UHGV virus genome: UHGV-1461890
Source: a virus
Length of the DNA: 41,432 nucleotides
Strand: one strand, 5' to 3'
Numbering within the stretch: position 1 is the stretch's first letter; each line of letters starts with the position of its first letter. The translations under genes were made by a program, and so were the position numbers. Below are positions 2,344-34,882 of this stretch, piece by piece. A model generated the notes under the pieces. The model saw nothing but the letters and a program-made list of their open reading frames with translations. It was not told the origin of the DNA and did not search any database.

Positions 2344-2660
2344 AAGCACACTACGCTAAAATTAACAAAACCGAGCCAAACGCAGCACAACGCAAAGTCT
2401 TACGGAATGAGGTGGTAAAAGAGTTTGATACCTTGCTTGAAAATTTTAACCACGATGTAATGGTGCAGATGTTATATTTGTTTCATTTTAAATATGGCTA
2501 CGGTCAAAAGAGATTGAAGCAGTTAAACAAGGATATTGCAGAAGCTCTTGACGGACTTAACGCAAGGTATGAATTATCAGTAAACGATACCGCTTGGTTA
2601 TGTGAGAAGAAACTCAAAGAAGATGGTATTGATGTAGACGAACTTTTTAAGGAGGTTTAA
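2340..2660 (+). CDS. hypothetical protein
   Basis: 106-aa ORF with ATGA overlap and RBS GGTGGGTGAGGA. Confidence 0.45.
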   Translation: MKAHYAKINKTEPNAAQRKVLRNEVVKEFDTLLENFNHDVMVQMLYLFHFKYGYGQKRLKQLNKDIAEALDGLNARYELSVNDTAWLCEKKLKEDGIDVDELFKEV

Positions 2661-2662
2661 AA

Positions 2663-2899
2663 ATGGCAAAGCACAATACTTCAGCTTATATCGAATGTCC
2701 TTTTCATCATTGGTACGATGGTTGCAAATTGTGCTGTGAAGGAGTAAAAAAAGACTCTGCCATACATTTAGCTTTTTCCTCTCCTGATGAAAGGCGGCAA
2801 TATATGAAAGATGTTTGTTATAAAAACTATAGGCGATGTATTATTGCTCAGGCTTTATATAATAAACATAATAATATAAATATAAATAATAAAGGGTAA
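2663..2899 (+). CDS. small Cys-rich hypothetical protein (CPFHHWYDGCKLCCEG)
   Basis: 78-aa ORF with RBS AAGGAGG 7 nt upstream. Confidence 0.45.
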   Translation: MAKHNTSAYIECPFHHWYDGCKLCCEGVKKDSAIHLAFSSPDERRQYMKDVCYKNYRRCIIAQALYNKHNNININNKG

Positions 2900-2905
2900 T
2901 ATGCT

Positions 2906-3289
2906 ATGTATTATTATAATAATAAAAATAAATATAATAACAGTAAGGTAACCTTTAACGGTGAGGCCTATGATAGTCGCAAAGAGGCCAAAAGACATCA
3001 GGAACTTTTATTGCTGCAAAGAGCAGGAGAAATTAAAGACCTTCAAAGACAGGTTAAGTTTGAACTTATTCCTACCCAGCGAGAGCCTGATACCATCGGT
3101 AAGCGAGGCGGTGTACATAAGGGTAAAGTGATAGAAAATAATGTTAATTATATTGCTGACTTTGTGTATACCGATTGTCGCTCAGGTGAAAAAGTGGTTG
3201 AGGATAGCAAAGGTATGAAAACTGAAAAATATATAATAAAGCGCAAACTTATGCTTTATATTCATGGCATCAGAATATTAGAAACATAG
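2906..3289 (+). CDS. DUF1064-like phage protein
   Basis: 127 aa. The pattern F.G..YDS..EA.R...L..L.....I..L..Q..F.L...........Y.ADF.Y......VVED.KG..T..Y..K.KL resembles the DUF1064 family common upstream of terminase genes. Recalled from memory, not searched. Confidence 0.45.
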   Translation: MYYYNNKNKYNNSKVTFNGEAYDSRKEAKRHQELLLLQRAGEIKDLQRQVKFELIPTQREPDTIGKRGGVHKGKVIENNVNYIADFVYTDCRSGEKVVEDSKGMKTEKYIIKRKLMLYIHGIRILET

Positions 3290-3293
3290 AGAT

Positions 3294-3320
3294 AGGAGGC
3301 TGAAAAGCCTTCTATTTTTT
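3294..3320 (+). terminator. rho-independent terminator-like hairpin after the early gene cluster
   Basis: AGGAGGCT-GAAA-AGCCTTCT stem-loop followed by ATTTTTTAT. Confidence 0.5.
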
Positions 3321-7897: not shown

Positions 7898-8863
7898 ATG
7901 ATTCATTTTATCAAACCTATGCACCTAAATCTTCAGCTTTTCGGTGAAGGCACCGGAACAGGTGGAGATGGTGGCACAGGTGCAGAAGGAAGTCAGGGCG
8001 TAACCGAGGTAGCCGCCATACCTCAAATCAAAAGCCGAAAAAGTAATCCTCTTGCTGATACCAAGTATGGTATCCAAGACGATGCAGCACAAGTCGCTGA
8101 TGTGCAAACCAAAGTAACCGATGCAGATGGTGTTACAACTGAAACTGTTGACCGTAATGCTGAATTTGAAAAGCTCATCAAGGGTGAATACAAGGACCTT
8201 TACGATGCCAAAGTTCAGGACACCATTCAAAAAAGGCTTAAAAGCTCAAAGGAAACCGTTGAGAAGTATAACGCTCTCTCCCCTACTCTCGAAATGCTGA
8301 GTAAAAAGTACGGTGTAGATGCTTCTGATATTGATGCCTTAAACAAGGCTATTCAAGAAGACGACTCTTATTATGAGGAAGAGGCCATGGAAAAGGGCAT
8401 CTCCGTACAGCAGTTAAAAGAGATTCGCAGAATGGAAAGAGAAAATGCTGACCTGAAGAGACAAATGCAGGAGCAATCCGTAAAGGAAAATGCTTCAAAA
8501 CTCTACGCTTCGTGGATGAATCAGGCAGAACAGCTTAAAGCGGTTTATCCATCTTTTGACCTTGAAACTGAGATGAGAAATCCAAAATTTGTAGACTTAC
8601 TCCGAGTGCCGAGTATTGATGTAAGAACTGCTTATGAGGTCTTACATAAGGATGAAATAATCCCGGCAGCCATGCAGTTTACTGCTCAGACAGTCGAGCG
8701 TAAACTTGCTAATAAGATAATGGCAAATGGAGCAAGGCCCTCAGAGAATGGTATGAACTCTCAGAGTGCAGCGGTAGTTAAGAGCGATGTGTCACAGCTC
8801 TCCAAAGCCGACCGTCAGGAAATTGCAAGACGTGTCGCACGAGGAGAAAAGATACGATTCTAA
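7898..8863 (+). CDS. scaffolding protein with L27-like N-terminal leader (MIHFIKPMHLNLQLF|GEG)
   Basis: ATG at 7898 with RBS AAAGGA. The N-terminus carries the NLQLF motif resembling the Prp cleavage site. The rest is acidic and coiled-coil-rich and sits upstream of the capsid gene. Confidence 0.65.
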   Translation: MIHFIKPMHLNLQLFGEGTGTGGDGGTGAEGSQGVTEVAAIPQIKSRKSNPLADTKYGIQDDAAQVADVQTKVTDADGVTTETVDRNAEFEKLIKGEYKDLYDAKVQDTIQKRLKSSKETVEKYNALSPTLEMLSKKYGVDASDIDALNKAIQEDDSYYEEEAMEKGISVQQLKEIRRMERENADLKRQMQEQSVKENASKLYASWMNQAEQLKAVYPSFDLETEMRNPKFVDLLRVPSIDVRTAYEVLHKDEIIPAAMQFTAQTVERKLANKIMANGARPSENGMNSQSAAVVKSDVSQLSKADRQEIARRVARGEKIRF

Positions 8864-8926: not shown

Positions 8927-9949
8927 ATGAAAAACATTTTTAAAATCAACCTTCAGCTCTTCGCTGAAATGAACACTCAGGTAACCACACAGTCTTCTCT
9001 CACACCTGAGATGAAGACCTACTATGACATGACCCTCATTGACGAGGCAAGTGCAAAGCTTGTACATGACCAGTTCGGTCAGAAGAAGCCTATTCCAAAG
9101 GGCAGCGGTAAAACCATCGAGTTCCGTAAGTTCTCACCTCTTGGTAAGGCTACCACACCTCTTACTGAAGGTGTTACTCCTAACGGTAACAGCCTGACTG
9201 TAACTGCTATCACCGCTACTGTTGCTCAGTATGGTGACTACATCGTACAGTCTGATGTGCTTGAACTCACCTCTCTCGATAACACAATTATCGAGGCTAC
9301 CAAGCTCTTAGGTAATCAGGCAGGTCTCACTCTTGATACCATCACTCGTAACATTCTTCAGGCAGGTACTAACGTATCATATTGTCCTAAGATTGCTGCT
9401 GACGGTACTGAGACAGAGGTTACATCTCGTGCTACACTCGATGCTACTTGTCAGCTTACTGTTGATATGGTACAGAGAGCAGTAACTAAGCTCAGAGCGC
9501 AGAACGCTCCTACCATTGATGGTGACTATGTTGCTATTATCCATCCTTATGTTGCTTATGACCTCATGAGAGACAAGGAATGGATTGAGGCTCACAAGTA
9601 TGCTACTCCCGAAAACATCTATGCAGGTGAAATCGGCAAGATAGCAGGTTGCCGCTTCGTACAGTCCACCGAGGCTAAAATTTATAAGGGTGATGGTTGT
9701 CCTACAGGCCTTGCTGTATTCGGTACTCTCTTCTTAGGCTCAGGTGCTTATGGTGTAACTGAGATTACAGGCGGTGGTTTGCAGACTATCGTTAAGCAGA
9801 AGGGTTCTGCCGGTACTGCTGACCCACTTGACCAGAGAAGCTCTGTAGGTTGGAAGGCTATTAAGACTGCTGAAAGACTTGTAGAAAACTACATGGTTCG
9901 TGTAGAGTCTTGCTCTAAGAGATACTCTGCAACAGCAGTAGCTAACTAA
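8927..9949 (+). CDS. major capsid protein with L27-like N-terminal leader (MKNIFKINLQLF|AE)
   Basis: 340 aa with RBS AAAGGAGA. It follows the scaffold gene, has the Prp-type leader motif, and is followed by a strong hairpin terminator. Confidence 0.75.
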   Translation: MKNIFKINLQLFAEMNTQVTTQSSLTPEMKTYYDMTLIDEASAKLVHDQFGQKKPIPKGSGKTIEFRKFSPLGKATTPLTEGVTPNGNSLTVTAITATVAQYGDYIVQSDVLELTSLDNTIIEATKLLGNQAGLTLDTITRNILQAGTNVSYCPKIAADGTETEVTSRATLDATCQLTVDMVQRAVTKLRAQNAPTIDGDYVAIIHPYVAYDLMRDKEWIEAHKYATPENIYAGEIGKIAGCRFVQSTEAKIYKGDGCPTGLAVFGTLFLGSGAYGVTEITGGGLQTIVKQKGSAGTADPLDQRSSVGWKAIKTAERLVENYMVRVESCSKRYSATAVAN

Positions 9950-10005: not shown

Positions 10006-10254
10006 ATGGCAAATAACACAGCCGCAAATAAACCCGAAGTGGTTAAAGAAAAGATAGTAAAAATCATTGTTCCTAAAACAAGGGAATTGCAAGATGATGT
10101 TTTTGTATCGGTGAATGACCGTACATGGCAGATTCAAAGAGGCGTTGAGGTAGAAGTTCCTGAATGTGTTGTTGAGGTATTAAAACACCAGACAGAAATG
10201 GAAAACATAGCTCTCGCATACGAAGCACAGGCCTCAAGTCCTAAAAATCATTAA
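10006..10254 (+). CDS. small virion-associated hypothetical protein
   Basis: ATG at 10006 with RBS AAGGAGTG. The track's 9997 start lies inside the RBS. Confidence 0.5.
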   Translation: MANNTAANKPEVVKEKIVKIIVPKTRELQDDVFVSVNDRTWQIQRGVEVEVPECVVEVLKHQTEMENIALAYEAQASSPKNH

Positions 10255-10265
10255 GTAAAAAATTT

Positions 10266-10290
10266 GGGGAGTTCTGAAACTCCCCTTTTA
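10266..10290 (+). terminator. hairpin terminator/attenuator inside the late operon
   Basis: GGGGAGTT-CTGA-AACTCCCC followed by TTTTA. Confidence 0.55.
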
Positions 10291-10311
10291 TCAAATTTGG
10301 AGGTAGACACA

Positions 10312-10680
10312 ATGAAGATTATTGAAGCAATACAACAGGTGGATGCTCTCAAGCCTAATAACTATAGTCAGGAAGACAAGATAAAATGGCTGTCTACCCT
10401 TGACGGAATCATTAAAAAGGAAATCATAGATACTCACGAGGGCGGCAACGAAATCGTATTTAACGGATATGATAGTTCTTCACTTGAGACAGAACTGCTT
10501 GTACCGGCACCTTATGATGATATCTATATCAAATGGCTTGAGGCACAGATTGATTATAACAATAGTGAAATAGGAAAATACAACAACAGTATGACTATGT
10601 ATAACTCGGCTTATAGCACCTTTGAAAGATATTACAACAGAACTCACATGCCGATAGGAAAGAAATTTAAATACTTTTAA
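10312..10680 (+). CDS. hypothetical head/connector-region protein
   Basis: ATG at 10312 with RBS GGAGGTAGACACA. The longer track ORF would read through the upstream hairpin. Confidence 0.5.
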   Translation: MKIIEAIQQVDALKPNNYSQEDKIKWLSTLDGIIKKEIIDTHEGGNEIVFNGYDSSSLETELLVPAPYDDIYIKWLEAQIDYNNSEIGKYNNSMTMYNSAYSTFERYYNRTHMPIGKKFKYF

Positions 10681-10691
10681 GGAGGAATATT

Positions 10692-12413
10692 ATGAGACTT
10701 TCAGGACTAACCGAACTTGCTACATCTCGTGATGTGGTAGAGGTGTTTGGTGGATACAATCATAACCTCCGCATAGCCAATTCTGAGTTTTACGATATGA
10801 AAAACCTGACCTCTGATGAATACCCGGTGCTATCTACAAGAAATAAAAGAGGCGTGGTTAAACAATTAGACTCATGCAAAGGAATAACAGCAAAAGGAAA
10901 ACTTGCCTATGTTGAAGGAAAAAAGCTTATATATGGCGATTATGTGCATGAAATTCCTGAACTTACCGATGGAGATAAGCAGCTTGTTTCGTTTGGCGCT
11001 TATTTAATCATCTTCCCTGATGGAATACAATACAATACCCAAACTGATGAGTGGGAACACCTTGAGGCTCATTACAAATCATCAGGTGAGGTTAAGTTTG
11101 AAATGTGCAACATAGAAAGCTCAGCCTATGAATATACATCAGGCCCGACAGCACCGGCAGAAGAAAACGGAAAGTATTGGCTTGACACATCGTCTAGTCC
11201 ACATAGCTTAAAGGTGTACTCTTCTACATCACAAATGTGGAGTACAGTACCAACCTGTTATGTAAAAATATCAGCACTTGGTATAGATGAGCATTTTGAA
11301 CTATATGACGGTATTGAAATAAGTGGTTGCACAGCGCCCGGCACATCTGACCTTAACAGCACGATGGTTATATGGGGAAAAGGCGAAGGATATATCACCG
11401 TTATTGGTGTGTTAGACCACATGGTTACTCAAGAGGATGTTATATCGGTGGATAGAAGCATACCTACTATGGACTTTATAACTGAAAGCGAAAACAGATT
11501 ATGGGGATGCCATTACGGAATTATAGATGGCAAACCTGTAAATGAAATATATGCCTGTAAATTAGGAGATGCAAAGAATTGGAACTGTTTTATGGGAATA
11601 TCCTCGGACAGTTATGCAGTATCTCTCGGTAGTGATGGCGTGTTTACAGGTGCAATAACCCACTTAGGACACCCATTATTCTTCAAAGAAAACTGTATAC
11701 ATAAGATATATGGCAATCTGCCTTCCAATTATCAGGTGAGTACAACCAACTGTAGAGGTGTTCAGCGAGGAAGCGAAAAGAGCCTTGCTATAGTAAACGA
11801 GGTCATTTTATACAAATCTGCTGTGGATGTGTGTGCCTATGATGGCAGCCTTCCTACTTCAGTATCAGATAATCTTGGCTCTGTGAGATATTTTGAAGCT
11901 GTAGCAGGAAGCATCGACGGAAAATATTACATCAGTATGAGAGATGCTGCAAATGAGTGGAACTTATTCGTATTCGATACCATTAAAAATATGTGGCACA
12001 AGGAAGATAATACCCATATAAAAGGCTTTTGTACACTCGGCACAGACCTTTATTTAGTAACCGATGATAACGCCCTGATGACTACAACAGGCACAGGAGA
12101 GACCAAAGAATCGAAGATTAAGTGGTTTGCAGAGACAGGTAGCATAGGTTATAGCTATCCAGATAACAAATATCTGTCAAAACTTAATGTCAGAATGACT
12201 CTTAATGTTGATAGCTCGGTGGCATTGTACATACAGTACGATTCGTTTGGAGAGTGGGAGCGTAAGTGGAGTATGAATGGTGTAGGCACAAGGTCCTTTA
12301 CCATACCTATTATCCCTAAGAGATGCGACCATTTTAAGATAAGATTTGAAGGTGAAGGAGATTGCAGAATATTCTCCATTGCTAAAATGCTTGAGATGGG
12401 AAGTGATGTGTAA
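10692..12413 (+). CDS. virion structural protein (putative tail/hub component)
   Basis: 573 aa with RBS AAGGAGG in the late operon. No recognisable motif; function inferred from position only. Confidence 0.45.
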   Translation: MRLSGLTELATSRDVVEVFGGYNHNLRIANSEFYDMKNLTSDEYPVLSTRNKRGVVKQLDSCKGITAKGKLAYVEGKKLIYGDYVHEIPELTDGDKQLVSFGAYLIIFPDGIQYNTQTDEWEHLEAHYKSSGEVKFEMCNIESSAYEYTSGPTAPAEENGKYWLDTSSSPHSLKVYSSTSQMWSTVPTCYVKISALGIDEHFELYDGIEISGCTAPGTSDLNSTMVIWGKGEGYITVIGVLDHMVTQEDVISVDRSIPTMDFITESENRLWGCHYGIIDGKPVNEIYACKLGDAKNWNCFMGISSDSYAVSLGSDGVFTGAITHLGHPLFFKENCIHKIYGNLPSNYQVSTTNCRGVQRGSEKSLAIVNEVILYKSAVDVCAYDGSLPTSVSDNLGSVRYFEAVAGSIDGKYYISMRDAANEWNLFVFDTIKNMWHKEDNTHIKGFCTLGTDLYLVTDDNALMTTTGTGETKESKIKWFAETGSIGYSYPDNKYLSKLNVRMTLNVDSSVALYIQYDSFGEWERKWSMNGVGTRSFTIPIIPKRCDHFKIRFEGEGDCRIFSIAKMLEMGSDV

Positions 12414-13129
12414 TGGCATTTACATTTACTCCTCCCAATATTACAGGAGCCACGCCTGAGGCTCAGCTTAAATCAATGCAATCATGGTTGTTTCAGTTTG
12501 GAGAACAGCTCCAATATGCAATAAACAACCTTGACACCTCTAATTTTAGTCAGGGTGGCCTTGAGGAAATATCAGGTGCAAAGGCTACATTACAAGCTAA
12601 AGGTGGTAACCTCGAAGAGTTTGATGCCCTTAAATCCCTTATTATAAAAACCTCTGATACAGTTCATTCATATTTTGAAGAGGTAACCGAGACACTTAAT
12701 AGTGATTACCTTGCTATTTCTGATTTTGGTGAGTATAGCGAAAGTAACAAGGCAGAGATAGTTAAAAATGCTTTAGGAGTTACTCAAAACTATTCAAGAA
12801 TAGAAGAGGCTTTTAAGAAATTAGACTCGGTAGAGACATCGTTTAATGCCTATGTAATAAAAACTAACGCCTACATCCGCACAGGTTACCTAGAGCAGCT
12901 TGACACCTATGGCGTTGCAATAGGCGAAGAAAAAACAGAAACGATTGATGGTGTAGAGGCTGTAACATTTAATCAATTTGCTACATTGACATCCGAAGAA
13001 CTCGCCTTTTGGCAGAATGGTGTTAAACTAGGATATTTTAAGGGTGATAGTTTGTTTGTCAACGGTGCTATCCGTATAGGAAGATGGGCCATAGATATAT
13101 CCGGTGGCTTTAGTATTAAATACGTTTAA
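12413..13129 (+). CDS. virion structural protein (putative)
   Basis: 238 aa with start overlapping the upstream stop (TAATG). Confidence 0.45.
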   Translation: MAFTFTPPNITGATPEAQLKSMQSWLFQFGEQLQYAINNLDTSNFSQGGLEEISGAKATLQAKGGNLEEFDALKSLIIKTSDTVHSYFEEVTETLNSDYLAISDFGEYSESNKAEIVKNALGVTQNYSRIEEAFKKLDSVETSFNAYVIKTNAYIRTGYLEQLDTYGVAIGEEKTETIDGVEAVTFNQFATLTSEELAFWQNGVKLGYFKGDSLFVNGAIRIGRWAIDISGGFSIKYV

Positions 13130-13141
13130 AGGAGGGATTGT

Positions 13142-14698
13142 ATGGGTTCAACATATCAAGCACACATAAGCAAATTTACTCCATCCATTGTGGTAAATGG
13201 CACAAATAAAATAGATGTCACCGTAGCATTTACTAATGTACAAACAGGAGAACTTGGATACGAAAATGATTTATATATTAAATTTGGTGACAGGTATTTA
13301 TATAAATACCTTGACACAACATCCTCATCACCTCAAACTTTTTCTTTTACCATTCCTGTTGATTGGTTAAATGAAATCCCTGATAAATCTGTGGCAACAG
13401 GCACAATAGAGTTAACGTGTCTAGATGTATATGCTTTTGAAGTTGCATATAAAGAAACTAAACCCTTCACAATATATGTTCCCGAAGAGTATAAGCCTAC
13501 AGTATCTAATTTGTCGGTAAGCTTCGGTGATATACGAAGTATGCTTGTTGATTATGCACTTTATGGATTGACAACTCCTCGTGCAAGAGCATTTGTACAA
13601 CCTCATTCTACTTCGCCTATAAAAAAATGGTACATTGCAGGCGGTGGCGTTATTGCTTCAGGGGAAGACCCTGATATATCAGACAATAATGACTATAACT
13701 TTTCGGAACGAGGAGAACTCATTAAAGCATTGAGCCACACAACATTCACCTTGACGGTGGAAGATGCACGAGGCAGAACCGCTTCCATAGAATCGGAGCA
13801 GTTTTATGTTCAATCATATCACCGACCTATAGTTAAGAGCCTATCTGCTTATCGCACAGATAAGGATGGTATTGCCAAAGCAGACGGAGACTACATCAAG
13901 GTTACTGTTGAAGGAGCAAAGTCTTCAATAAAGGATAGCGAGGATAATGAGTGCAATAGTCTGGCGTGTTATGTGGATTGGAAAGAGGCTAATGGCTCAT
14001 ATAGTAATTTTGCTGATATAACCAATAACGAACCTTTTATCTTTGAGGCTAAAAAAGATACGAACTTTGAAATAAAGTGTACGCTCCGGGATAAATATAT
14101 GGAAACTGTAGCTTATGCCAACGTAATAGGTGATAACAAAGATTTTAATATTGCTGATGGTGGCGGTGGTGCTGCTATAGGCATGAAGGCTACTAAGGAT
14201 TACTTTGATGTATTACATAAAACCCGTTTACAAAAGAACCTAAGTGCTAAAGGTACTATTTCATCAGAAAAAGGCTTAGTTAGTACAGGTACAGGCAGTA
14301 AAGGAGACTTCCTTTCGTTTGGTAAGGCAGAAAGAATATTTACAGACTATCACCAAACCGCTGAAGGAAATTGGGTTGTTAATATTTGGGGTGATTTTAA
14401 TGATTGCACATCATTAGGCTTATATGGAGTTTACAATAACAACGATGTGTCATCTTCCAATTATTACAAGGTAGCAAATGCTCCTTGTGAAAAGGCAGGT
14501 ACATTAAGAGTGTATTGCGCCAATGGTGATATGGATGAATCCTCAACCTACCGATACATAATGCAAGAATATGTGGTATATGACGGTAGTGCAGTATACC
14601 GAAGGTGTTTATCTAAAACTCGTGACAATTCAGATGTAGAATGGCCTGCAAATTGGACATTTGGCAGCTGGTATCGTTACTCAGGAACAAAAGTTTAA
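13142..14698 (+). CDS. virion structural protein (putative)
   Basis: 518 aa with RBS AAAGGAGGG. Confidence 0.45.
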   Translation: MGSTYQAHISKFTPSIVVNGTNKIDVTVAFTNVQTGELGYENDLYIKFGDRYLYKYLDTTSSSPQTFSFTIPVDWLNEIPDKSVATGTIELTCLDVYAFEVAYKETKPFTIYVPEEYKPTVSNLSVSFGDIRSMLVDYALYGLTTPRARAFVQPHSTSPIKKWYIAGGGVIASGEDPDISDNNDYNFSERGELIKALSHTTFTLTVEDARGRTASIESEQFYVQSYHRPIVKSLSAYRTDKDGIAKADGDYIKVTVEGAKSSIKDSEDNECNSLACYVDWKEANGSYSNFADITNNEPFIFEAKKDTNFEIKCTLRDKYMETVAYANVIGDNKDFNIADGGGGAAIGMKATKDYFDVLHKTRLQKNLSAKGTISSEKGLVSTGTGSKGDFLSFGKAERIFTDYHQTAEGNWVVNIWGDFNDCTSLGLYGVYNNNDVSSSNYYKVANAPCEKAGTLRVYCANGDMDESSTYRYIMQEYVVYDGSAVYRRCLSKTRDNSDVEWPANWTFGSWYRYSGTKV

Positions 14699-14719
14699 AA
14701 TCTATAGGAGGAATGGTAA

Positions 14720-15901
14720 ATGGGAGATTTTAAGTATAAAGAATTTAAGTATGATGATTGGAAATATGATGACTATGTTGAGAGTGAGCAGGTCAACAAA
14801 TACAAGTACAATCTAGACAATCACAACTCATCAAAACCGGGCGAATATCAATCAAAGTATCAGGCTGTGGCTGATGAGGTCCTAAACAACTATATGAATA
14901 GAGATAAGTTCTCTTATGATATTAACGGAGATGCACTCTATCAGCAGTACAAGGATAAATTTATGACACAGGGCAAGTTAGCATCTCAGGATGTAATGGC
15001 TCAGGCTGCTGCTATGACAGGTGGCTATGGTAACTCTTATGCCGCAACAGTAGGCAATCAGGCATATCAAGCCTCGTTGCAGAATCTTAATGATGTTGTT
15101 CCTGAACTATACCAAATGGCATATAACCAATATCAGCAAGAAGGTCAGGATATGCTCAATAAATATAGCATCTATGCGGATAGAGAAAATACCGAGTATG
15201 GTAGATATAGAGATTCTGTGGCTGATTGGCAGAGCGAAAGAGAATACCTTACCAACCTTTACAATACTGAGAGGTCTTGGGATTATAGCAAATACTCCGA
15301 TAATCGCAACTTTGATTATGGTGTATATTCCGATGATAGAAACCTCGCCTATACTCAGTATGATAGCGACAGGAACCTTGCTTACACCGACTATAGAAAT
15401 GATATAGCAGACCAACAATGGCAGGCAACATTTGATGAAGGTGTAAGACAGTATAACCAAAATTATGAATATCAGGTAGGTCGAGATAAAGTTGCAGACC
15501 AACAATGGCAGGATACCTTTAACCAAGCTCTTGCTGAATTTGGTTATCAGAAAGAGAGAGACACAATCGCAGACCAACAATGGCAGGATAGCTATGATTT
15601 ACAGGCAGAACAAATTCGTAATAATGAAAAGGCTGCTGCTTATGATGCTATTGTTAAGTCTGAAGAAAATGTTAAAAATGCGAAGAGCAAGATATTGTCT
15701 ATACACGATTTCCTAAACAATGCTACAAAAAATGTAATTACTCGTGGAAATAGAGGAAATACAGGTAATGGTGGCACAACATATACTTACAACAAAAAGA
15801 CCTACAACACATATACCGACTATGTTTTTGATGTTCTTGATGGCTTGAATTTAACAGATGATGAAATGGCAACCGTACTCAAGGATTTAGGCCTTGCATA
15901 A
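14720..15901 (+). CDS. Tyr/Gln/Asp-rich repeat protein (putative internal/ejection protein)
   Basis: 393 aa with RBS ATAGGAGGAA. Contains three copies of an IADQQWQ(D/A)(T/S)(F/Y) peptide repeat and NLAYT(Q/D)Y repeats. Confidence 0.45.
   Translation: MGDFKYKEFKYDDWKYDDYVESEQVNKYKYNLDNHNSSKPGEYQSKYQAVADEVLNNYMNRDKFSYDINGDALYQQYKDKFMTQGKLASQDVMAQAAAMTGGYGNSYAATVGNQAYQASLQNLNDVVPELYQMAYNQYQQEGQDMLNKYSIYADRENTEYGRYRDSVADWQSEREYLTNLYNTERSWDYSKYSDNRNFDYGVYSDDRNLAYTQYDSDRNLAYTDYRNDIADQQWQATFDEGVRQYNQNYEYQVGRDKVADQQWQDTFNQALAEFGYQKERDTIADQQWQDSYDLQAEQIRNNEKAAAYDAIVKSEENVKNAKSKILSIHDFLNNATKNVITRGNRGNTGNGGTTYTYNKKTYNTYTDYVFDVLDGLNLTDDEMATVLKDLGLA
15407..15587 (+). repeat. three exact copies of GCAGACCAACAATGGCAGG (spacing 87 and 75 nt) inside the 14720..15901 CDS
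   Basis: 19-mer at 15407, 15494 and 15569 encodes ADQQWQ. Confidence 0.8.
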
Positions 15902-15916: not shown

Positions 15917-18900
15917 ATGGGAGCTAAAGATGTATATGAGCAGTTAAAACGAGAAAAACAACAAGGCAATTCTAAAGCCAAAAAAGTCTACGCTCAAATG
16001 ATGCAATCTAAAATAATAGATGAATTCAATTCTCTTATAAAGCATAATTCGGACTTTTACAATAAAACCAAGTCTCGTTTTTATGACGAAGATGACAACT
16101 TTATAGACATCTATCGTTCTGATTCAGAAGATTGGAAAAACACAGCGGTTTCCATGTCAAGTTCTGCTAGAGAAAAGTCTACAAATATAAGAAGTTTGCT
16201 GGATGAATATGGTTCGTATTATGATGCGGATACTGTATCGAGTATGTTAAAAACCCTTGATGAGCATGAAAAATTCTCTACTGACATTGTAAAACAAGCG
16301 GTAGAACAACATGACTATTTTTCCGAGTATAAAGACGAGAATGACTACAACCAAAAGGTTGTTATACCTAAAAATCAAAATGAAGAGTGGGCCTCAGCCA
16401 ATACTGAGGCTCTGAAAACTGAGATTGGCAACCTTGAAACATCTTATAAGGCATATTCAGAACTTAAATCAAAGAGAAATTTAAGAAGTTCTCAGCTTAT
16501 ATCCAACTATATAAAGTCAGGTTATACGAGAGATGAGGCAGTAAAATTAGCCGCTAAAGACAAGGATATTATCGAATACGATAAAAAGTTATCTGTTTAT
16601 GGAGATATGAGTAATGCTGAAAAATCTCTCTCCGAAAAGAAGCAGTTTTACAACAATGCCACTCGTGTTCAGGAAGGCTTATCTTTAAGCGGAATAACTG
16701 ACCCTTCATCCAAGCACTATGACCCAAATTATCTCAAGTATTCAGCAAAAGGTGAGGCTATGGGTGATGAGAAAAACGGTGGTTTTTTTACACCTGATAC
16801 TCAGCGCAAAAACCAAGTGGCTTACCTCCGTAACAATCCCGATATGTTGGAACTGTATGAAGAAACTGCCAACGATGCTAATGGCGCATCATGGGGAACT
16901 TCCGAAAGAATATTACTAGACCAAATTGAATATAAAGCCGCTAAGTATATGACAGATGAAGAGTTTTTAATTTACAATGCCTACTTAGGCAAGGGAGACA
17001 AAGAATCGGCTGATAAATATTTGGAGAGTATAGAGGAGACTTTAACCTCTCGTCAGGGTGCGGCGATTTCTGAACAGCAAGATACTTGGCTTAAAAAACA
17101 ATTATTTAGCGTTTATGCAGGACTCGACCAATGGGAACAAGGCATTATCAGTTTAGGTAACACCGAAGGAAAATATGACTCCCCTACAGGCGTACAGTTT
17201 GCCTCAGGCACAATAAGAGAAGACTTGGGTGCAATCGGTCAAGGTGCTTATGACTTAGGCGTTACTACAGGAAACATGCTCCCATCCATTTTGGTTTCAT
17301 ATCTCACAAGTGGTGTTGGTGGTGCAGTAGGTTTAGGCGCAAAGGCAGCAGGAACACTAGGCAAAGTAGCCGGTGCCGCAACCTTGGGAAGCTCGGCAGC
17401 AGGTAATGGTTATCAGGAAATGCTCAACCTTGGCTATGATAAGAGTCAGGCACAGGCTTATGGCACTCTTGTAGGCCTTTCCGAAGCAGGTCTTGAGTAT
17501 GTATTGGGTGGTATTTCATCCCTTGGTGGTACGGTTTCAGGTGGCATAACTGACAAGGTCGTTACTAAGTTAGTTTCTAACATGGATAAGGCTATCGCTA
17601 AGGTAGCCATTGGCGCAGGTGGTAAACTTGTAGGTAGTATGGTATCTGAATTTGGAGAAGAATACCTGCAAGAAGTATTAGACCCGGTATTTAAAAACAT
17701 AACGCTTAACACCGATGAGGATATAAGGTTATTCTCCTCCGAGGCTCTTTATGCAGGTATACTAGGTGCATTGTCAGCAGGTTTGCTTGAGGGTGGTTCG
17801 AGTATATCAGGTGAGGTTGCAACCTATAAAGCAGGTAAGGATGTTAAGAACACAGGTCAGTTAAGTAACCTTAAAAAGTTCGGCACATCATTTTCTGCTG
17901 ATACCGTTGCATATAAGATTGCAAGTCAGGTTGATGAGAACACCGATGCTTATACCATAGGTCAGCTGCTACATGAAGTGGGCGCAGATAGTTTATCTGA
18001 AGCAAATATAGCTGACATAGTAAAATCTCTTGAGAGGAAAAACATATCTCCCGAACACGCTCAAACCATTGCTGAGTGGTTAAACGCTTCTGTTCAAGGT
18101 GAGGTATTTAATCCTCTTCAGCGATTAGCTTTAAAAAATCCTGATATAGCACAAACCTTTAAGGATGTTATTATAAACCAGAACTCTACAGTAAATCAAA
18201 GGATGCAGAGTTATACCGACATCCTTCAAAATATCGCCAATGAAAAGGAAATTATAAAGGCTAACAAAAGCAAAGCAAAGGCTGAGAAGAAAGCTAATAA
18301 AACCAAAACAACCGAAGAAACAAAAACTACACCTTTTGTTCCTTTGTCTAATGAAGCAATTACTGCTTCTAAGATAGAATCACTAGCAAAAGAACTTGAA
18401 AGCGAAGGTGTATCACCTGAATTGGCTCAGGTTATGGCTCAGAGGAAGGTTTCTGAATCTTCAGAGGGTAAATCTGTTGCCGATACTGAAAATGCTATAG
18501 AGAACAAATTTGAAACCAATTTAGATGGACAAACACTCAACACAAAAACAGGTGATAGTGTTAATGTGTCTGAAATAGCCTCTATAAAAGATGGCAAAAT
18601 GACCTTAAAACTTGACAATGGTGAAACTGTAGATGCAGACGATATTAGTTTTGGTACTGAAGATGAGGGTTTAATCTATTCGACAGTATTAGACATGGGT
18701 GTTAATGCCGCTGTAGCAAACTCTCTTGTAAAAAATTACAGTCCATCGGACAAGCTCTCAGCAAGACAATATGCTCTTGGCATTAAAGAGGCATATAAGT
18801 ATGGCTCTTATGGTATGCCTATAAACGAAATATCTAAAAACGGTTTTGCCGCTGATTTAAGTGAGGCTCAGAGGACTCATGCCTATAACCTTGGCAAATC

Positions 18901-27337: not shown

Positions 27338-29203
27338 ATGAATTATGCAGTATATAATATTGCTCTTGACATACATAAGACAGGCTCTCAGGTAGCCTTG
27401 CCTATGATAAGAGGCGAGAACAAAAGAAAAATAGTTATCTCTCTTACCGAAAATGGTAGGCCATATAAAATAGCAAGTGGCTGCACAGCAAAGTTTGCAG
27501 CCTTTAAGCCTGACGGAAAACCTATTTATAACGATTGTGTTGTAGATATAGAAAACAATCTCATAATTTACACCATTACTTCTCAGACAACAGCAGTTAT
27601 GGGTGAAGTAAAGTGCCAAATTGAACTTATTGGAACTGATGACGGTTTACTCTTCTCCCCTACATTCAGCCTTATAGTTGCAGATAAATTATATAACCAA
27701 GAGCCTATATTAGCCTCATCCGAGGAGTTTAATGCTCTTACTGCCTATGTTGCTGACCTTCAGAAAAAACTTGATAATGGCGAGTTTAAAGGTGATAAGG
27801 GTGACAAGGGAGATAGGGGAGACCGAGGACCTCAAGGTGTTCAGGGTGATACAGGTCCTGCCGGTAAAGATGCAGACTCCTCTTCCCTATCTCCATCTAT
27901 TATATGTACCGAAAAGGGAACTGCAATTACTATTTCGGATAGTTCTGAGTCGGGATTTGAGGCTTTTAGCATATATGGAAGGTCCACTCAGAATGGAACA
28001 CCGACACCTTCGGCACCTGTAAACATTGCCTCGGTTGGTGATGATGGAAAGATTATTGCCGGTGTACAAGACAAAACTAATATATTTGATACTGTGTTCA
28101 CAAGCGGTGGCATTACTCAAGATACAGGAAAAGAATTCGTTGATACTACATTACAACGAACGGATTATATTTCCGTTAAGGAAGGGTCTATCTATAAAAT
28201 ATCAGGGTTAGGTGGCCCGGTCAGAATATTCTGTTACAATGCAAACAAAGTGTTTTTGTCCTCAATTTATGGAACGACAGGCGAATGGTTTGTTGTTCCA
28301 ACATCATGTGCTTTTATTAGATTTCATATAGTAATAGCTAATTACAACAAAGACTTGAAGGTAAATCGAATTAATGCAATAACCTTAGAAAATCGTGTGT
28401 TAAGAGCCATCCCTGTCACCGACTCAAGCCTCGCTACATACACCGATACTAACGGTCAAATGTGGTGCGCTGATGAGATAGACTTTGAGAGAGGAGTTTA
28501 TATTCAAAGATGCTATACTGAAACTATATCAATGACGTATGAAGAAGCAAATAACCGATATATAGGGGAAATAAGTAAAAATGCCAACTCGAAAATATCA
28601 AATAGCATTGGGATAATTGTTCTTACCGATAAATTGCCTTATAACGAGAATGCAGGAAAGATAGACGAAGCAGTGAATGGTGTGCGTGTATCTTACGGAA
28701 ACAAAAAAGCGGTAATTGCTTACTTTAATGACGAGGTCATATCTTCGCTCAATATTCTCTATCCGTTAGAGATATCAATCGAAACACCTTTAACCTCAGA
28801 ACAAATTGCAGCATACAAGGCCCTGAAGACAAATTACCCATCTACAACCATATTAAATGATGAAAATGCATTTATGAAGGTGGGATATAGAGCTGATACT
28901 AAGAAGTTTATAGAGAAAATGTCAGGCTCGACTACTCAGATTTCTTCCGTTACTCTTGCTGCTTCAAAATGGGTAGGCACAGCAAGTCCATATTCTCAGG
29001 TTGTGACAGTTCCGGGTGCTACTAAAAACAGCAAGATAGACCTTAACCCTTCCGTTGCTCAGCTTGGTATCTTCCATAATAAAGATATTTCCTTTGTGGT
29101 TGAAAATGATGACGGAGTAATAACGGTATATTGCATAGGTCAGAAACCTACAAACGATTACACAATACAAGCCACAATTACGGAGGTGTATGTAAATGGC
29201 TAA
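27338..29203 (+). CDS. tail fibre / receptor-binding protein with BppU-like N-terminus and short collagen-like G-X-Y repeat
   Basis: ATG at 27338 with RBS GGAGGG at 7-nt spacing. GDKGDKGDRGDRGPQGVQGDTGPAG lies at nt ~27791-27868, followed by a beta-rich C-terminal region. Confidence 0.65.
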   Translation: MNYAVYNIALDIHKTGSQVALPMIRGENKRKIVISLTENGRPYKIASGCTAKFAAFKPDGKPIYNDCVVDIENNLIIYTITSQTTAVMGEVKCQIELIGTDDGLLFSPTFSLIVADKLYNQEPILASSEEFNALTAYVADLQKKLDNGEFKGDKGDKGDRGDRGPQGVQGDTGPAGKDADSSSLSPSIICTEKGTAITISDSSESGFEAFSIYGRSTQNGTPTPSAPVNIASVGDDGKIIAGVQDKTNIFDTVFTSGGITQDTGKEFVDTTLQRTDYISVKEGSIYKISGLGGPVRIFCYNANKVFLSSIYGTTGEWFVVPTSCAFIRFHIVIANYNKDLKVNRINAITLENRVLRAIPVTDSSLATYTDTNGQMWCADEIDFERGVYIQRCYTETISMTYEEANNRYIGEISKNANSKISNSIGIIVLTDKLPYNENAGKIDEAVNGVRVSYGNKKAVIAYFNDEVISSLNILYPLEISIETPLTSEQIAAYKALKTNYPSTTILNDENAFMKVGYRADTKKFIEKMSGSTTQISSVTLAASKWVGTASPYSQVVTVPGATKNSKIDLNPSVAQLGIFHNKDISFVVENDDGVITVYCIGQKPTNDYTIQATITEVYVNG

Positions 29204-30290
29204 AATTTATGGTGGTACAATCACAACACCAATCAATCCGGAAATGTTTGGTGGTAATGCCAACACTATAAAGAACAGTGTAAGCGGTAGCATAGTAACC
29301 ATACCTGACATTTCACCTATTGAACATAATCTAGATATTAAGTTGACAGGAGAGGTTGGAGTTGAGGTATTTGATATTTCTCAAATATCGAGCAATGATA
29401 CCATTCAGGTAAATGTGGAAAATGGCACAATAACAACAGGCGACGCTAAAGGCTATACAACTGAAAGCTTTGGAGCATTATATCCTGAAATTAAAGATGG
29501 TGACAAAGTAACAATTAGTTATAAATCAAATGGCAAAATATATGTTGGTGAGGGGTTGTTTGACGAAAGCGAAGAAAACGGCATTATATATTTGCGTTTT
29601 ATTGCAAGTGAAAATTACCATTTAACAAGCTCGATTGCTTTTAGTTCAGAAACAACCTATACCAATATAAGCATTAAAGTCGCCCGACCAATAGTCGATT
29701 TTTCTGATGTCGAGGTTATCAGTAGCGGTAAAAATCTGTTTAATGTTGATGTATTTGTATCTAATGAAAAAGGAATTACAAACAATGGCGACGGAACATT
29801 AACCGTTACACAATATCCTTCGTATACAGACCGCACATTAGCAGATTTATTCCCTGCTTTAAGAGTGGGCGACACTATTATATTTAACGTAGATACTAAT
29901 TATACAGATTATTACCATAAGATGATTTATTTAAGTAGCACTACACATAAAATTAGAATTGGTACACCATACACCATAAAAAAGGGTGACTTGTCTGATA
30001 AAGTGTGTCTATATTGCTATAGAGCAGATGGCGTAAACTACCCAACTACTTTTTCTAATATGCAAATAGAATTGGGAACTGTAAAAACAGAATATGAGCC
30101 TTACCGAGAACCACAAATTGTCAGGGCAAATGCCGACGGTGCGGTTAAAGGACTTAAAAGTATTTATCCCACAACTGTTTTAAAGGCAGATACAGAGGGT
30201 GTAATAATCAACACTACCTACAATGTTGATACCAAAACATATATAGACCGAAAATTTGCCGAGCTTTCACAGGCACTACTTAATTTATAG
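29196..30290 (+). CDS. putative second fibre / distal tail protein
   Basis: 364 aa with start overlapping the upstream stop (ATGTAAATGG); Thr/Ser/Gly/Asn-rich beta-type composition. Confidence 0.45.
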   Translation: MAKIYGGTITTPINPEMFGGNANTIKNSVSGSIVTIPDISPIEHNLDIKLTGEVGVEVFDISQISSNDTIQVNVENGTITTGDAKGYTTESFGALYPEIKDGDKVTISYKSNGKIYVGEGLFDESEENGIIYLRFIASENYHLTSSIAFSSETTYTNISIKVARPIVDFSDVEVISSGKNLFNVDVFVSNEKGITNNGDGTLTVTQYPSYTDRTLADLFPALRVGDTIIFNVDTNYTDYYHKMIYLSSTTHKIRIGTPYTIKKGDLSDKVCLYCYRADGVNYPTTFSNMQIELGTVKTEYEPYREPQIVRANADGAVKGLKSIYPTTVLKADTEGVIINTTYNVDTKTYIDRKFAELSQALLNL

Positions 30291-30302: not shown

Positions 30303-30692
30303 ATGTTTAATACAGTAAAAAATGTTTTATCACAGGGCGGTTATGACCTAAAGGACATACTTAATAAAATTGAGGTGCTTTGGGTAAAAGGTAAGCTCAC
30401 AGACGAGGAACACGAAGAACTTATTACTCTTGCAAGAGATGGTGCTAAACCTGAAAATAGCCTTGATGTTTTTGCAAAACTTGATGAATTTGAAAAGCGT
30501 ATAAGAGCGTTAAAGGACAACACCGACAAACCTGATGCAGAAACCTATATAGAGTTTGAAAATGGTAAATGGTATTACAACGGTGACAAGATACTATTTG
30601 AGGGCGAAAACTATGTGTGTATAGCGCCTGAGGGTACCGTGTGCGTATGGTCGCCAAAAGACTACCCTACTTATTGGGAAAAGGCGGTGTAA
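30303..30692 (+). CDS. hypothetical protein (XkdX-like position downstream of fibres)
   Basis: 129 aa with RBS TAGGAGGAA. Confidence 0.4.
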   Translation: MFNTVKNVLSQGGYDLKDILNKIEVLWVKGKLTDEEHEELITLARDGAKPENSLDVFAKLDEFEKRIRALKDNTDKPDAETYIEFENGKWYYNGDKILFEGENYVCIAPEGTVCVWSPKDYPTYWEKAV

Positions 30693-30695
30693 CCG

Positions 30696-30974
30696 TTGGC
30701 GACAGAATACATCGAGTTTGTGAAGTTAATTGTTTCAGAACTTACAATAATGGCACCTGTGATAATTGCGATATTTTTAATTATACAGGGTATTAAATGT
30801 TTGTTGAGGAGCGAGATGCTTCGAACATATTACCACAATAAAGACCGTGAAAAGATAAGACAGTTTGAGCTTGAAAATTTTATAGCCTTATACAAAGCAT
30901 ACAAAGCACTTAGAGGCAACAGCTTCATTGATAAAATATATAAAGAGGTTATGTCTTGGGAAGTAATAAGTTAA
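30696..30974 (+). CDS. holin-like single-TM protein
   Basis: TTG start with RBS AAGGCGGTG. One transmembrane segment (IMAPVIIAIFLIIQGI) is followed by a charged C-terminus. Lies upstream of the holin/endolysin pair. Confidence 0.4.
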   Translation: MATEYIEFVKLIVSELTIMAPVIIAIFLIIQGIKCLLRSEMLRTYYHNKDREKIRQFELENFIALYKAYKALRGNSFIDKIYKEVMSWEVIS

Positions 30975-30986
30975 AGGAGAATTGTT

Positions 30987-31181
30987 ATGGAAAAGTTTAA
31001 GAAAATAGCAAAGTATGTATTAAACAGTTTAACTATCGTAAATGCCTTGCTAATAGGCTTAGACCCTATATGGAATATTCCGTATGCGGATAAAACCATA
31101 GCAACTATATCGGTGGTTATGGCGGTAATATCTACATACTTGTTAGGCAACAAAGCCGTAAGCAAAGCAAAGGGGGAATAA
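30987..31181 (+). CDS. holin (two transmembrane helices)
   Basis: 64 aa with RBS AAGGAGAA. Two hydrophobic helices and a C-terminal KAVSKAKGE tail; sits immediately upstream of, and overlaps, the amidase gene. Confidence 0.6.
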   Translation: MEKFKKIAKYVLNSLTIVNALLIGLDPIWNIPYADKTIATISVVMAVISTYLLGNKAVSKAKGE

Positions 31182-31182
31182 T

Positions 31183-31893
31183 ATGTTCAAACTCGCATTG
31201 AATTCAGGACATTATAAAGAAACGGCAGGTAAACGATGCCTTAAAAAACTTGATAAGAACGAGACAAGAGAATGGGTGCTGAATGACCGAATCTGTGATA
31301 AGATTGAACAAAAGTTAAAAGACTATGAAGGATATCAACTTTTGAGAATTGACGATACAACCGGAAGCACCGATGTATCCCTTGCCAATAGAGTGACTAA
31401 AGCAAACTCTTGGGGTGCTGACTTCTATCTTTCTATTCACCATAACGCAGGTATCAATGGTGGCACAGGCGGTGGTGTAATGGCATATACATATACCAAA
31501 GTTGATGAAATTACAAAGGCTTGGCAGAAGGAACTGTATAATGCAATCATCAAGAACACAGGATTAAAGGGTAATCGTTCTACTCCCCTTGCTTCTGCAA
31601 ATCTTTACGAATGCAGAAAGACAAGTATGCCATGTGTACTCCTTGAATGTGGCTTTATGGACTCCGCAACAGATGTTCCGGTCATCCTTACCGATGACTT
31701 TGCGGACAAGGTTGCATCCGCTTGTGTCTCTGTAATTGTCTCTAAGGGCGGTTTAACTAAAAAGAAGGTAGAAGAGCCTACCACATCAAAAGTCCTTTAC
31801 AGAGTGCAAACAGGAGCATTTTTTGATAAGGCTAACGCAGTTGAGCTTGTAAACAAGTTAAAGAAAGACGGTTACGATGCAATAATCGTATAA
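31183..31893 (+). CDS. endolysin: N-acetylmuramoyl-L-alanine amidase (Amidase_3 type) with C-terminal SPOR domain
   Basis: LSIHHNAG and VLLECGFMDSATD fit MurNAc-LAA motifs. C-terminal YRVQTGAFFDKANAVELVNKLKKDGYDAIIV matches the SPOR repeat consensus. Confidence 0.8.
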   Translation: MFKLALNSGHYKETAGKRCLKKLDKNETREWVLNDRICDKIEQKLKDYEGYQLLRIDDTTGSTDVSLANRVTKANSWGADFYLSIHHNAGINGGTGGGVMAYTYTKVDEITKAWQKELYNAIIKNTGLKGNRSTPLASANLYECRKTSMPCVLLECGFMDSATDVPVILTDDFADKVASACVSVIVSKGGLTKKKVEEPTTSKVLYRVQTGAFFDKANAVELVNKLKKDGYDAIIV

Positions 31894-33607: not shown

Positions 33608-33839
33608 CTATTTCATCTTCAAAATCTTCAGCACAATATTCACATACTGTTCTACCATCTTTTAAGTGAAAAAACTCAACATAGTCATAAGACCAATACT
33701 CGTTACATTCCTCGCATAAAAAATAGTTTTCATCTAAGCATTTCTTACACAGGTGATTTTTCTCGTCAGCAATAACCAAATCACAGTTTTCAGTTCCACA
33801 CTCAGTACAAGTGCCGGTATATTCTCTTGAAGTGTTCAT
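33597..33839 (-). CDS. small acidic zinc-ribbon protein co-transcribed with int
   Basis: 80 aa with four C-x2-C pairs and a DEIDEE tail; its stop overlaps the int start. Confidence 0.5.
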   Translation of the reverse strand: MNTSREYTGTCTECGTENCDLVIADEKNHLCKKCLDENYFLCEECNEYWSYDYVEFFHLKDGRTVCEYCAEDFEDEIDEE

Positions 33840-33854
33840 AGTTCACCTGCTTTC

Positions 33855-34430
33855 TTAATCGTCTTTTATAAAGTGATTAAAAACTAAGTAAAAAAATAAT
33901 ATTACTATTCCTACTAAAAAGAAAATTTTTGTTAATATTCCTGAGTAAGAATCCATAACGATATTTCCTATTACATCAATCCACAATAACAACAAAAAAT
34001 ATCCAACAACTTTTAATAAATCTTTATTTTGCAATATTTTTTTTAAAACACTTGTTATTTTATCTTTTATACAAAAATTTGTAATCTTACTTTCGCCATA
34101 TAACACTCGGCGGTGAATCTTTTGAAAAAGCTTAGATTGCTCCATTTCTTCTAATTTTACTTCTAACTGTTTAATCTCTTTATCTAAAGCAGAATCTAAA
34201 GCAACTCTACTTTTTACAATATCAATTGTTTTTTGAGAATGTTGTGTATAGCTAATATTGCGAAAAAGACCAGTATATTCTCTTTTTTTATACTCTGCAT
34301 TTAAAAGTTCGTGATATACATCCTGATATTTTTTATAAGCAGCCTTTTCGTTATCATTTTTTAAATAGTCTTCAACATTAGTAAAACGAAAAAATTCTTG
34401 TATATCATCGATGTCAATTCTTTCACTCAT
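33855..34430 (-). CDS. membrane protein (C-terminal double TM), candidate superinfection-exclusion / abortive-infection factor
   Basis: 191 aa with a soluble N-terminal domain and two C-terminal hydrophobic helices; encoded in the lysogeny operon. Confidence 0.5.
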   Translation of the reverse strand: MSERIDIDDIQEFFRFTNVEDYLKNDNEKAAYKKYQDVYHELLNAEYKKREYTGLFRNISYTQHSQKTIDIVKSRVALDSALDKEIKQLEVKLEEMEQSKLFQKIHRRVLYGESKITNFCIKDKITSVLKKILQNKDLLKVVGYFLLLLWIDVIGNIVMDSYSGILTKIFFLVGIVILFFYLVFNHFIKDD

Positions 34431-34440
34431 AATAATTCCC

Positions 34441-34866: not shown

Positions 34867-34882
34867 ATTGATGTCCTTTCAG

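Follow-up and report, generated by a model that had tools for sequence, protein, structure and literature searches.

What kind of tail is built by a phage whose genes between the capsid gene and a single giant gene appear to include none of those that make a long tail? This question is raised by UHGV-1461890, a 41.4-kb viral contig of 41,432 nucleotides, the whole of which was analyzed and is referred to here as the window. Downstream of its major capsid gene, the window carries open reading frames (ORFs) of 82, 122, 573, 238, 518 and 393 amino acids (aa), followed by a giant ORF and then by fibre genes (Table 1). This series had been described in a first-pass annotation, and the layout of the module was confirmed, since the ORF list agrees with genes called independently on this contig. 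The first-pass annotation had also proposed a short-tailed virion, reasoning from the genes that were missing. That proposal can now be based on genes that are present, namely a P22-type portal, an adaptor fold, a nozzle fold of the gp10/gp12 type and a gene order parallel to that of P22, together with the lack of long-tail families. Taken together, these features indicate that the window is very probably the genome of a temperate podovirus with a short-tailed virion.

Adaptor, nozzle and the lack of long-tail genes

The defining core of a podovirus tail consists of the portal, the adaptor and the nozzle. The window portal belongs to the P22 family. To identify the nozzle, a family alignment of the 573-aa protein was assembled from database homologues and modelled with AlphaFold2. 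The resulting model was all-beta, with a predicted local distance difference test (pLDDT) score of 68 and a confident propeller at residues 50-300. A Foldseek search with this model returned P22 gp10 (three entries), Sf6 gp8, Kp7, Pa223 and T7 gp12 as the best seven matches, with E-values from 1e-9 to 8e-7. The predicted structure of the 573-aa protein thus contains the beta-propeller of the gp10/gp12 nozzle or hub class. The 122-aa protein, whose gene adjoins the nozzle gene, was predicted to adopt the helical-bundle adaptor fold of P22 gp4 and T7 gp11. The mechanical start of this ORF is a TTG codon, giving 138 aa, and an ATG start gives 122 aa. Of 2,784 homologues found, those among the matches listed are all about 122-145 aa long and nearly all 122-123 aa, which identifies the ATG as the correct start. 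Membership of the two proteins in the adaptor and nozzle classes is based on fold and synteny.

No tube, tape-measure, assembly-chaperone, terminator or sheath family was found in the module ORFs by Pfam, PHROGs and NCBIfam scans, which could miss a very divergent protein, and the larger ORFs outside the module likewise matched no such family in PHROGs scans. More generally, the family scans revealed no tube, tape measure, frameshifted chaperone pair, or baseplate core of the distal-tail or tail-associated-lysin type; the only siphovirus families present were BppU_N and DUF859, both of receptor-binding modules. NCBIfam and PADLOC scans added nothing further, and sequence and profile searches against PDB chains (with the 573-, 518- and 628-aa proteins, the giant protein, and the family profiles A1, A2, A3, A5 and A6) gave nothing significant. 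The absence of a tube, a chaperone pair and a tape measure, on which the first-pass annotation had relied, therefore stood up to the profile searches by which a tube or tape-measure gene might have come to light among these ORFs.

The genome in which these genes are missing appears to be complete. Both contig ends (positions 1-60 and 41300-41432) consist of a GGCTCT/GGCGAT/GGCTAT hexamer repeat encoding GSG(D/Y), and a single gene (MEKIKEFLKIELGSGSGYGSG...GDGIKAINGDTIYQIDG...) reads through the joined ends within this repeat. The contig thus represents a circular or permuted genome that is essentially complete, the assembly having broken inside a coding microsatellite. Truncation therefore does not explain the absent tail genes, and tail genes lying beyond the ends are unlikely. 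The same arrangement was found in about 40 Clostridia loci, in the order terminase, portal, Prp protease, scaffold, capsid, and proteins of about 85, 124, 585 and 240 aa, followed by a variable protein, a protein of about 330-450 aa and the giant ORF. No additional ORFs lie between the capsid and nozzle genes in these loci, and homologues of the 82-aa protein occur in 49 related loci. Since the gene order is shared by about 40 loci, the missing tail genes are a property of the lineage rather than an accident of assembly.

Several observations weigh against the short-tailed reading. Confidence in the two structural models is moderate, with pLDDT scores of 68 for the nozzle and 72 for the adaptor, and residues 1-49 and 302-396 of the nozzle model are unreliable. 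Comparison with P22, which the first-pass annotation had suggested, brought no support at the sequence level: hhalign alignment of family profiles to gp4, gp10, gp26 and gp20 gave probabilities below 1%, although the templates were single P22 sequences and therefore weak, so that this result rules out close homology only. PHROGs assigns the 573-aa family (phrog_511) to the head-and-packaging category as an "internal virion protein". Two of the families detected, BppU_N in the 628-aa protein and DUF859 in the 518-aa protein, were described from siphoviruses. For the 82-, 238-, 518- and 393-aa proteins, the exclusion of a divergent long-tail fold comes from the family scans, and for this phage and its confirmed relatives alike the short tail is read from the genes. 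The phrog_511 label was rejected in favour of a nozzle on the strength of two independent fold searches, and is probably a propagating misannotation.

The 393-aa protein and the giant polyvalent protein

The 393-aa protein was described in the first-pass annotation as rich in Tyr, Gln and Asp repeats, and its composition (10.9% Tyr, 8.7% Gln and 10.9% Asp) bears this out. The repeats exist at the protein level only, with no tandem array in the DNA. A conserved block spans residues ~55-160 and is followed by variable aromatic/Asp/Gln repeats. An N-terminal PG_binding_1 domain was found in 9 of 38 syntenic relatives and CW_7 in one of the 38, and most of the best 120 database homologues carry PG_binding_1/3 or LysM. 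The window's own copy has no peptidoglycan-binding domain. The occurrence of such domains in many relatives indicates that the family works in contact with peptidoglycan.

Contact with the wall could be made from inside or from outside the virion. We favour an ejected, wall-engaging protein, a reading to which we give about an even chance. The 393-aa gene occupies the slot of the P22 ejection proteins, directly 5′ of the gene for the giant protein, and T7 gp16, which is ejected and acts on peptidoglycan, provides a general precedent. The alternative, that the protein is an external component of the tail tip or collar that binds the Gram-positive wall at adsorption, is less probable and still a serious contender. 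The N-terminal PG_binding_1, LysM or CW_7 domains of many relatives could be used by an exposed virion protein before ejection, and the family scans revealed no similarity to known ejection proteins. In a single case, in an Acetatifactor locus (L075, 4098-5402), the 393-family homologue begins with MLKMNLQLF followed by A, the same Prp motif that is found on the two head proteins presumably processed in the procapsid (see below). This N-terminus speaks against an external location, and is a weak hint that members of the family can be processed inside the procapsid.

The giant protein, with a mass of 425 kDa, belongs to a class defined by Iyer et al. in 2017 as polyvalent proteins, the phage-borne members of which were predicted to be packaged and injected (PMC5512222). 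Assignment to this class is based on several properties. Effector domains are combined in one very large polypeptide: an ADP-ribosyltransferase domain (ART-PolyVal), which is the one domain confirmed by a curated model, and a HExxH motif conserved in all aligned relatives. The gene stands among the virion genes of a phage with a portal and terminase, and domain content varies between relatives. Orthologous giants of 3,507 aa (PBECR5 and ART-PolyVal), 3,791 aa (DNA_methylase) and 3,945 aa (no Pfam hit) were identified. Residues ~300-1300 are common to 20-31 of 40 relatives, residues 1300-2500 form a variable middle shared by 2-10 of the 40, and residues ~2600-3300 are common to about 9-12 relatives among the loci reaching that far. 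The zincin-type peptidase assignment draws on the motif and its conservation; the Pfam MPTase model found no match in this region (E<0.01), which counts against it. Self-processing of polyvalent proteins by zincin domains was proposed by Iyer et al. (PMC5512222).

The N-terminal part of the giant protein also contains a Gly/Ala/Ser-rich region (residues 431-660) that is moderately hydrophobic, with GxxxG-like spacing. We take it to resemble the glycine-zipper regions of membrane-active phage proteins. The region is possibly membrane-active itself, a suggestion opposed by its hydropathy, which lies below the Kyte-Doolittle threshold for transmembrane segments.

Whether the giant protein is needed for DNA delivery was addressed by comparison with relatives. 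In two of them (L042, 10001-17648; L072, 9758-16227), the nozzle gene is followed by genes for 238-like, 393-like and 518-like proteins and then by endolysin and holin genes, with no giant ORF between. The tail and lysis modules of both appear intact. The giant protein is therefore accessory cargo, and a role as an essential DNA conduit was rejected. A third locus (L070, 14290-17359) also has no giant ORF, host spoIVA coming directly after the 393-like gene; this prophage is truncated and was not counted.

The first-pass annotation had cast the giant and the 393-aa proteins as ejection proteins. Ejection is plausible from gene position, from the polyvalent class of the former and from the wall-binding relatives of the latter. 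The likeness to established ejection proteins did not extend to sequence: neither protein matched the P22 gp7/gp20/gp16 or T7 gp14-16 families in Pfam, PHROG, NCBIfam or PDB-sequence searches, and the giant proved to be accessory.

By analogy, the giant protein probably travels inside the head and enters the cell along with the DNA. Its gene is located well within the late structural operon, flanked by the 393-aa and fibre genes, and an effector that is made only late would be of little use unless carried to the next cell. Its ART-PolyVal module, like the PBECR and methylase modules of its relatives, defines the polyvalent class for which injection is predicted, and a conserved N-terminal block of 1,300 aa beside swappable modules fits a delivery module. 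Tested precedents include P1 DdrB and the N4 virion RNA polymerase, the latter being of similar size, packaged and injected (PMC5512222). It is unlikely that the protein is instead left out of the capsid, whether as a late-expressed protein that counters defences or takes over the host from the cytoplasm, or as a very large appendage on the outside of the tail. This alternative draws on the facts that the place of the protein in the virion is read from sequence, that two relatives with apparently intact tails lack it and it is thus no structural necessity, and that a Pfam scan detected no MuF or portal-binding domain in it.

A more far-reaching proposal, which we regard as doubtful, is that the N-terminal ~1,300 residues of the giant protein, comprising the Gly-rich amphipathic region and the HExxH motif, form a Gram-positive ejectosome together with the wall-binding 393-aa family. 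It is equally doubtful that such a module, engaging membrane and wall, delivers swappable effectors (ART, PBECR RNase or DNA methylase) through the P22-like tail. If true, one polypeptide would combine the work of the P22 and T7 ejection proteins with that of injected anti-defence cargo of the N4 and P1 type, within a capsid that holds ~41 kb of DNA.

The properties of the giant protein also bear on the tail itself. In many siphoviruses no gene is longer than that of the tape measure, and lytic domains can form part of its product. The giant ORF encodes a Gly-rich region and stretches of coiled coil, and the siphovirus-associated families BppU_N and DUF859 are present as well. A long-tailed phage in which the giant ORF is an unusually long tape measure with fused enzymes is nevertheless highly improbable, and the tape-measure assignment was rejected. 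Neither a tube, a terminator, a chaperone pair, a distal-tail protein nor a tail-associated lysin was found in the family scans, and the adaptor and nozzle folds are of the podovirus type. At ~1.5 Å per residue, 3,782 aa would imply an absurd tail of ~570 nm. The giant ORF is absent altogether from some relatives, and the domains found across its family (ART, peptidase, RNase and methylase) are not tape-measure modules.

Fibre, lysis and head genes, lifestyle and host

The 238-aa protein occupies the slot of P22 gp26. Its N-terminal ~100 aa are conserved in 56 loci (consensus IRxPNI...SYLYQLVxQLNxAL), and its C-termini vary. In longer syntenic relatives (449-1,166 aa), the C-termini carry the Peptidase_S74 intramolecular chaperone, collagen repeats, CBM_4_9, long coiled coils, or tail-fibre and tail-spike PHROGs. 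These features suggest a needle or fibre, probably trimeric, that is held in the nozzle either as a central plug or as a side fibre. Homologues of the 518-aa protein were found in just 6 of 80 loci; in the two relatives that lack the giant ORF, a 518-like protein is the sole large product encoded from the 393-like gene to the lysis genes. Such a sporadic distribution is typical of receptor-binding proteins, for which the 518-aa protein is a candidate. The 364-aa protein, which had no family match in the scans and no homologue in the related loci, is a probable distal fibre or receptor-binding component, as judged from its position. The structural module ends with a lysis cassette, in which ORFs of 92 and 64 aa have transmembrane-like segments and the endolysin (31183-31893) combines Amidase_3 (E=2.6e-26) with SPOR and matches phrog_435 (endolysin).

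Upstream of the tail genes, the Prp protease gene is placed between the portal and scaffold genes. An NLQLF motif followed by G or A was found near the N-termini of the scaffold (MIHFIKPMHLNLQLF followed by GE; 7925-7969) and of the capsid protein (MKNIFKINLQLF followed by AE; 8945-8980), and both proteins carry it N-terminally in nearly all related loci (L001-L086). NLQxF is the site cut by Prp in ribosomal protein L27 and in the head proteins of staphylococcal phage 80alpha. The 114-aa protease is thus a probable maturation protease for the scaffold and capsid proteins, as far as motif and gene position can tell.

Table 1. Coordinates of the annotated features of the window and the evidence for each assignment.
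Feature	Position	Strand	Evidence
Portal, P22 type, 667 aa	5482..7485	+	PF16510 P22_portal E=1e-31, 110.6 bits (cutoff 26.1); phrog_156 E=1.6e-83
Prp-type cysteine protease, 114 aa	7498..7842	+	PF04327 Peptidase_Prp E=1.2e-13
Scaffold-like protein, 321 aa from MIHFIKPMHLNLQLF	7898..8863	+	phrog_13908 E=2.5e-90 (function unnamed); between protease and capsid genes; independent gene call
Major capsid protein, 340 aa	8927..9949	+	phrog_1357 E=3.6e-92; Phage_capsid_3, Phage_capsid_4
Conserved 82-aa protein, slot of P22 orf69 (85 aa from upstream GTG)	10006-10254	+	phrog_15239, function unknown
Head-to-tail adaptor (predicted), 122 aa, P22 gp4 / T7 gp11 class	10312..10680	+	Podovirus-type adaptor fold
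Tail nozzle/hub (predicted), 573 aa, P22 gp10 / Sf6 gp8 / T7 gp12 class	10692..12413	+	Fold search
Short needle or fibre (probable), 238 aa	12413..13129	+	Conserved N-terminal anchor; slot of P22 gp26
Variable tail protein, 518 aa	13142..14698	+	phrog_372 "tail protein" E=2.4e-18; weak DUF859 E=2.8e-07
Tyr/Asp/Gln-rich protein, 393 aa	14720..15901	+	Homologues in 57 loci (core gene)
Giant polyvalent protein, 3,782 aa, 27% of genome	15917..27265	+	PF18760 ART-PolyVal; phrog_22978 E=1.2e-184
Gly/Ala/Ser-rich region of giant, aa 431-660	17207..17896	+	Read from sequence; N-terminal block conserved in 25-30/40 relatives
HELTH motif of giant (putative zincin-type metallopeptidase), aa 1108-1112	19238..19252	+	HExxH in 31/31 aligned relatives
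ADP-ribosyltransferase domain of giant, aa 2188-2354	22478..22978	+	PF18760 ART-PolyVal E=1.8e-21, 77.8 bits (cutoff 31.2)
Tail fibre, 628 aa	27317..29203	+	PF10651 BppU_N E=3.3e-15 (N-terminal anchor); Collagen repeat; phrog_10972 tail fiber E=3e-24
364-aa protein	29196..30290	+	No family match; position
129-aa protein	30303..30692	+	CBM_5_12 E=3e-4, weak, below Pfam cutoff
Lysis cassette, end of structural module	30696..31893	+	Two small membrane proteins (holin-like) and endolysin
Lysogeny and replication module	32111-41014	see below	Family scans
Serine recombinase	32111-33607	-	Family scan
Two helix-turn-helix repressor-like genes	34441-34866, 35204-35626	-	Family scan

The remainder of the window holds a lysogeny and replication module, which also encodes a RecE-like exonuclease, RecT, a single-strand DNA-binding protein, a DNA methyltransferase and a DnaD-like helicase loader. 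A scan of one genome per prokaryotic species identified 362 relatives of the nozzle gene, nearly all of them in metagenome-assembled genomes (MAGs) of Clostridia, including Oscillospiraceae, Faecousia, Flemingiibacterium, Acutalibacteraceae and some Lachnospiraceae. Genomes of Agathobacter, Acetatifactor and the Enterocloster type also harbour relatives. Some of the relatives are embedded in Clostridia contigs of 130-394 kb and are therefore integrated prophages. The serine recombinase, the repressors and the integrated relatives together show that the window phage is temperate. The distribution of the relatives places the host among gut Clostridia, in the order Oscillospirales or groups related to it. 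In gut metagenomes the lineage is encountered very often: clustering at 90% leaves more than 7,000 homologues of the nozzle. Relatives were also found in MAGs named Methanarcanum (an archaeon), Bacteroidaceae and Alistipes (loci L065, L008 and L045); these assignments are most likely binning errors from free phage contigs of ~43 kb and not true hosts. Nucleotide and protein searches of GenBank phages returned just unannotated "Bacteriophage sp." faecal contigs and one distant Bacillus phage, PK1, with no cultured or imaged relative.

The lack of long-tail genes and the truncation of some relatives (as in the locus that runs into host spoIVA) might suggest a defective prophage, or a capsid-forming satellite that takes its tails from a helper phage, a reading made scarcely credible by the window's own adaptor, nozzle, fibres, lysis cassette, recombinase, repressors and replication genes, by its 41-kb length with all long ORFs intact, and by the many near-identical contigs of 41-45 kb found as free-standing assemblies.

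Assembly, infection and comparison with known phages

A working model of the virion can be built on what is directly established: which genes are present, the family to which the portal belongs, the folds of the adaptor and the nozzle, the domains of the giant protein, and conservation across relatives. In this model, a dodecameric P22-type portal would bind a ring of the 122-aa adaptor, on which a ring of the 573-aa beta-propeller nozzle would sit. The 238-aa protein would plug or extend the nozzle through its conserved N-terminal anchor, and the 518-, 628- and 364-aa proteins would serve as exchangeable receptor-binding fibres. A short, non-contractile tail of this P22/T7 architectural class would need no tube, tape measure or sheath. 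On infection, the 393-aa protein would act at the peptidoglycan, either ejected before the DNA or at the tail tip. The giant protein would be packed in the head in few copies and threaded through the tail with the DNA, possibly with cleavage by its own HExxH peptidase, and would then deliver its ADP-ribosyltransferase and other modules to blunt host defences. The parts of the model that we infer are the oligomeric states, where in the virion the 393-aa and giant proteins reside, ejection, self-cleavage and the targets.

The closest architectural parallel is with P22 and Sf6, with which the window shares the portal family, the adaptor and hub folds, a temperate lifestyle and a genome of ~41 kb. 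The P22 order of coat, a small ORF, gp4, gp10, gp26 (a short trimeric protein) and ejection proteins is matched slot for slot. Unlike P22, however, the window encodes no protein with detectable similarity to gp4, gp10, gp26 or gp20 in the hhalign comparison and no gp9-type tailspike, having fibres with a BppU-type anchor and collagen repeats instead, and it appears to process its capsid and scaffold proteins by a Prp protease. Its host is Gram-positive, so that there is no outer membrane or periplasm to cross, and where P22 has three mid-sized ejection proteins, the window has a wall-associated protein of 393 aa and a polyvalent protein of 3,782 aa. As judged by these comparisons, the window is not a P22-like phage in the narrow, Lederbergvirus-type sense; the likeness is architectural rather than familial.

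T7 offers the same adaptor-plus-nozzle architecture (gp11 and gp12) and the same principle, in which proteins packaged in the head exit via the tail, one of them acting on peptidoglycan. In contrast to the ~200-aa adaptors of the T7 type, the 122-aa adaptor of the window consists of the helical core only, without the fibre-docking domain. The window has no homologues of gp14-16, and is temperate whereas T7 is virulent.

For the giant protein, the closest parallels are N4 gp50 and the polyvalent proteins of Iyer et al., with which it shares a length of ~3,500-3,800 aa, a zincin-type HExxH motif, an ART domain (in some members), modules that change between related phages and a gene placed with the late virion genes in a podovirus genome. 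It differs from N4 gp50 in that no RNA polymerase module was detected in it and that the Pfam MPTase model found no match. Furthermore, the window phage is temperate with a small genome, 27% of whose coding capacity is taken up by the giant, and injection was tested for N4, whereas the giant is known from its sequence. By analogy, the packaged and injected N4 virion RNA polymerase is its closest tested counterpart.

A parallel at the level of whole phages was described in 2024 for the prophages phi1 and phi4 of Clostridium clostridioforme LM41, which are ~41 kb long, lack tape-measure and sheath genes and carry an 8-kb ORF with similarity to polyvalent proteins; podovirus-like particles were observed in the culture supernatant by transmission electron microscopy (PMC11318856). 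The likeness is by description only, the window being known from its genes. The giant ORF of the LM41 prophages is ~8 kb long, compared with 11.3 kb in the window, and neither an adaptor nor a nozzle was identified in that study (PMC11318856).

Both the tail architecture and the polyvalent class have been described previously, and nothing is changed in principle by their occurrence here. The tail genes of this lineage are currently unannotated or misnamed, and the assignment of adaptor, nozzle and fibre anchor is usable for thousands of uncultured Oscillospirales prophages. The assignment of a short tail bears on host range and transduction in these prophages. Finally, with a giant protein that takes up a quarter of a small temperate genome, the lineage offers a tractable test of whether such proteins, as has long been predicted, enter the virion and are injected as anti-defence cargo with several effectors.

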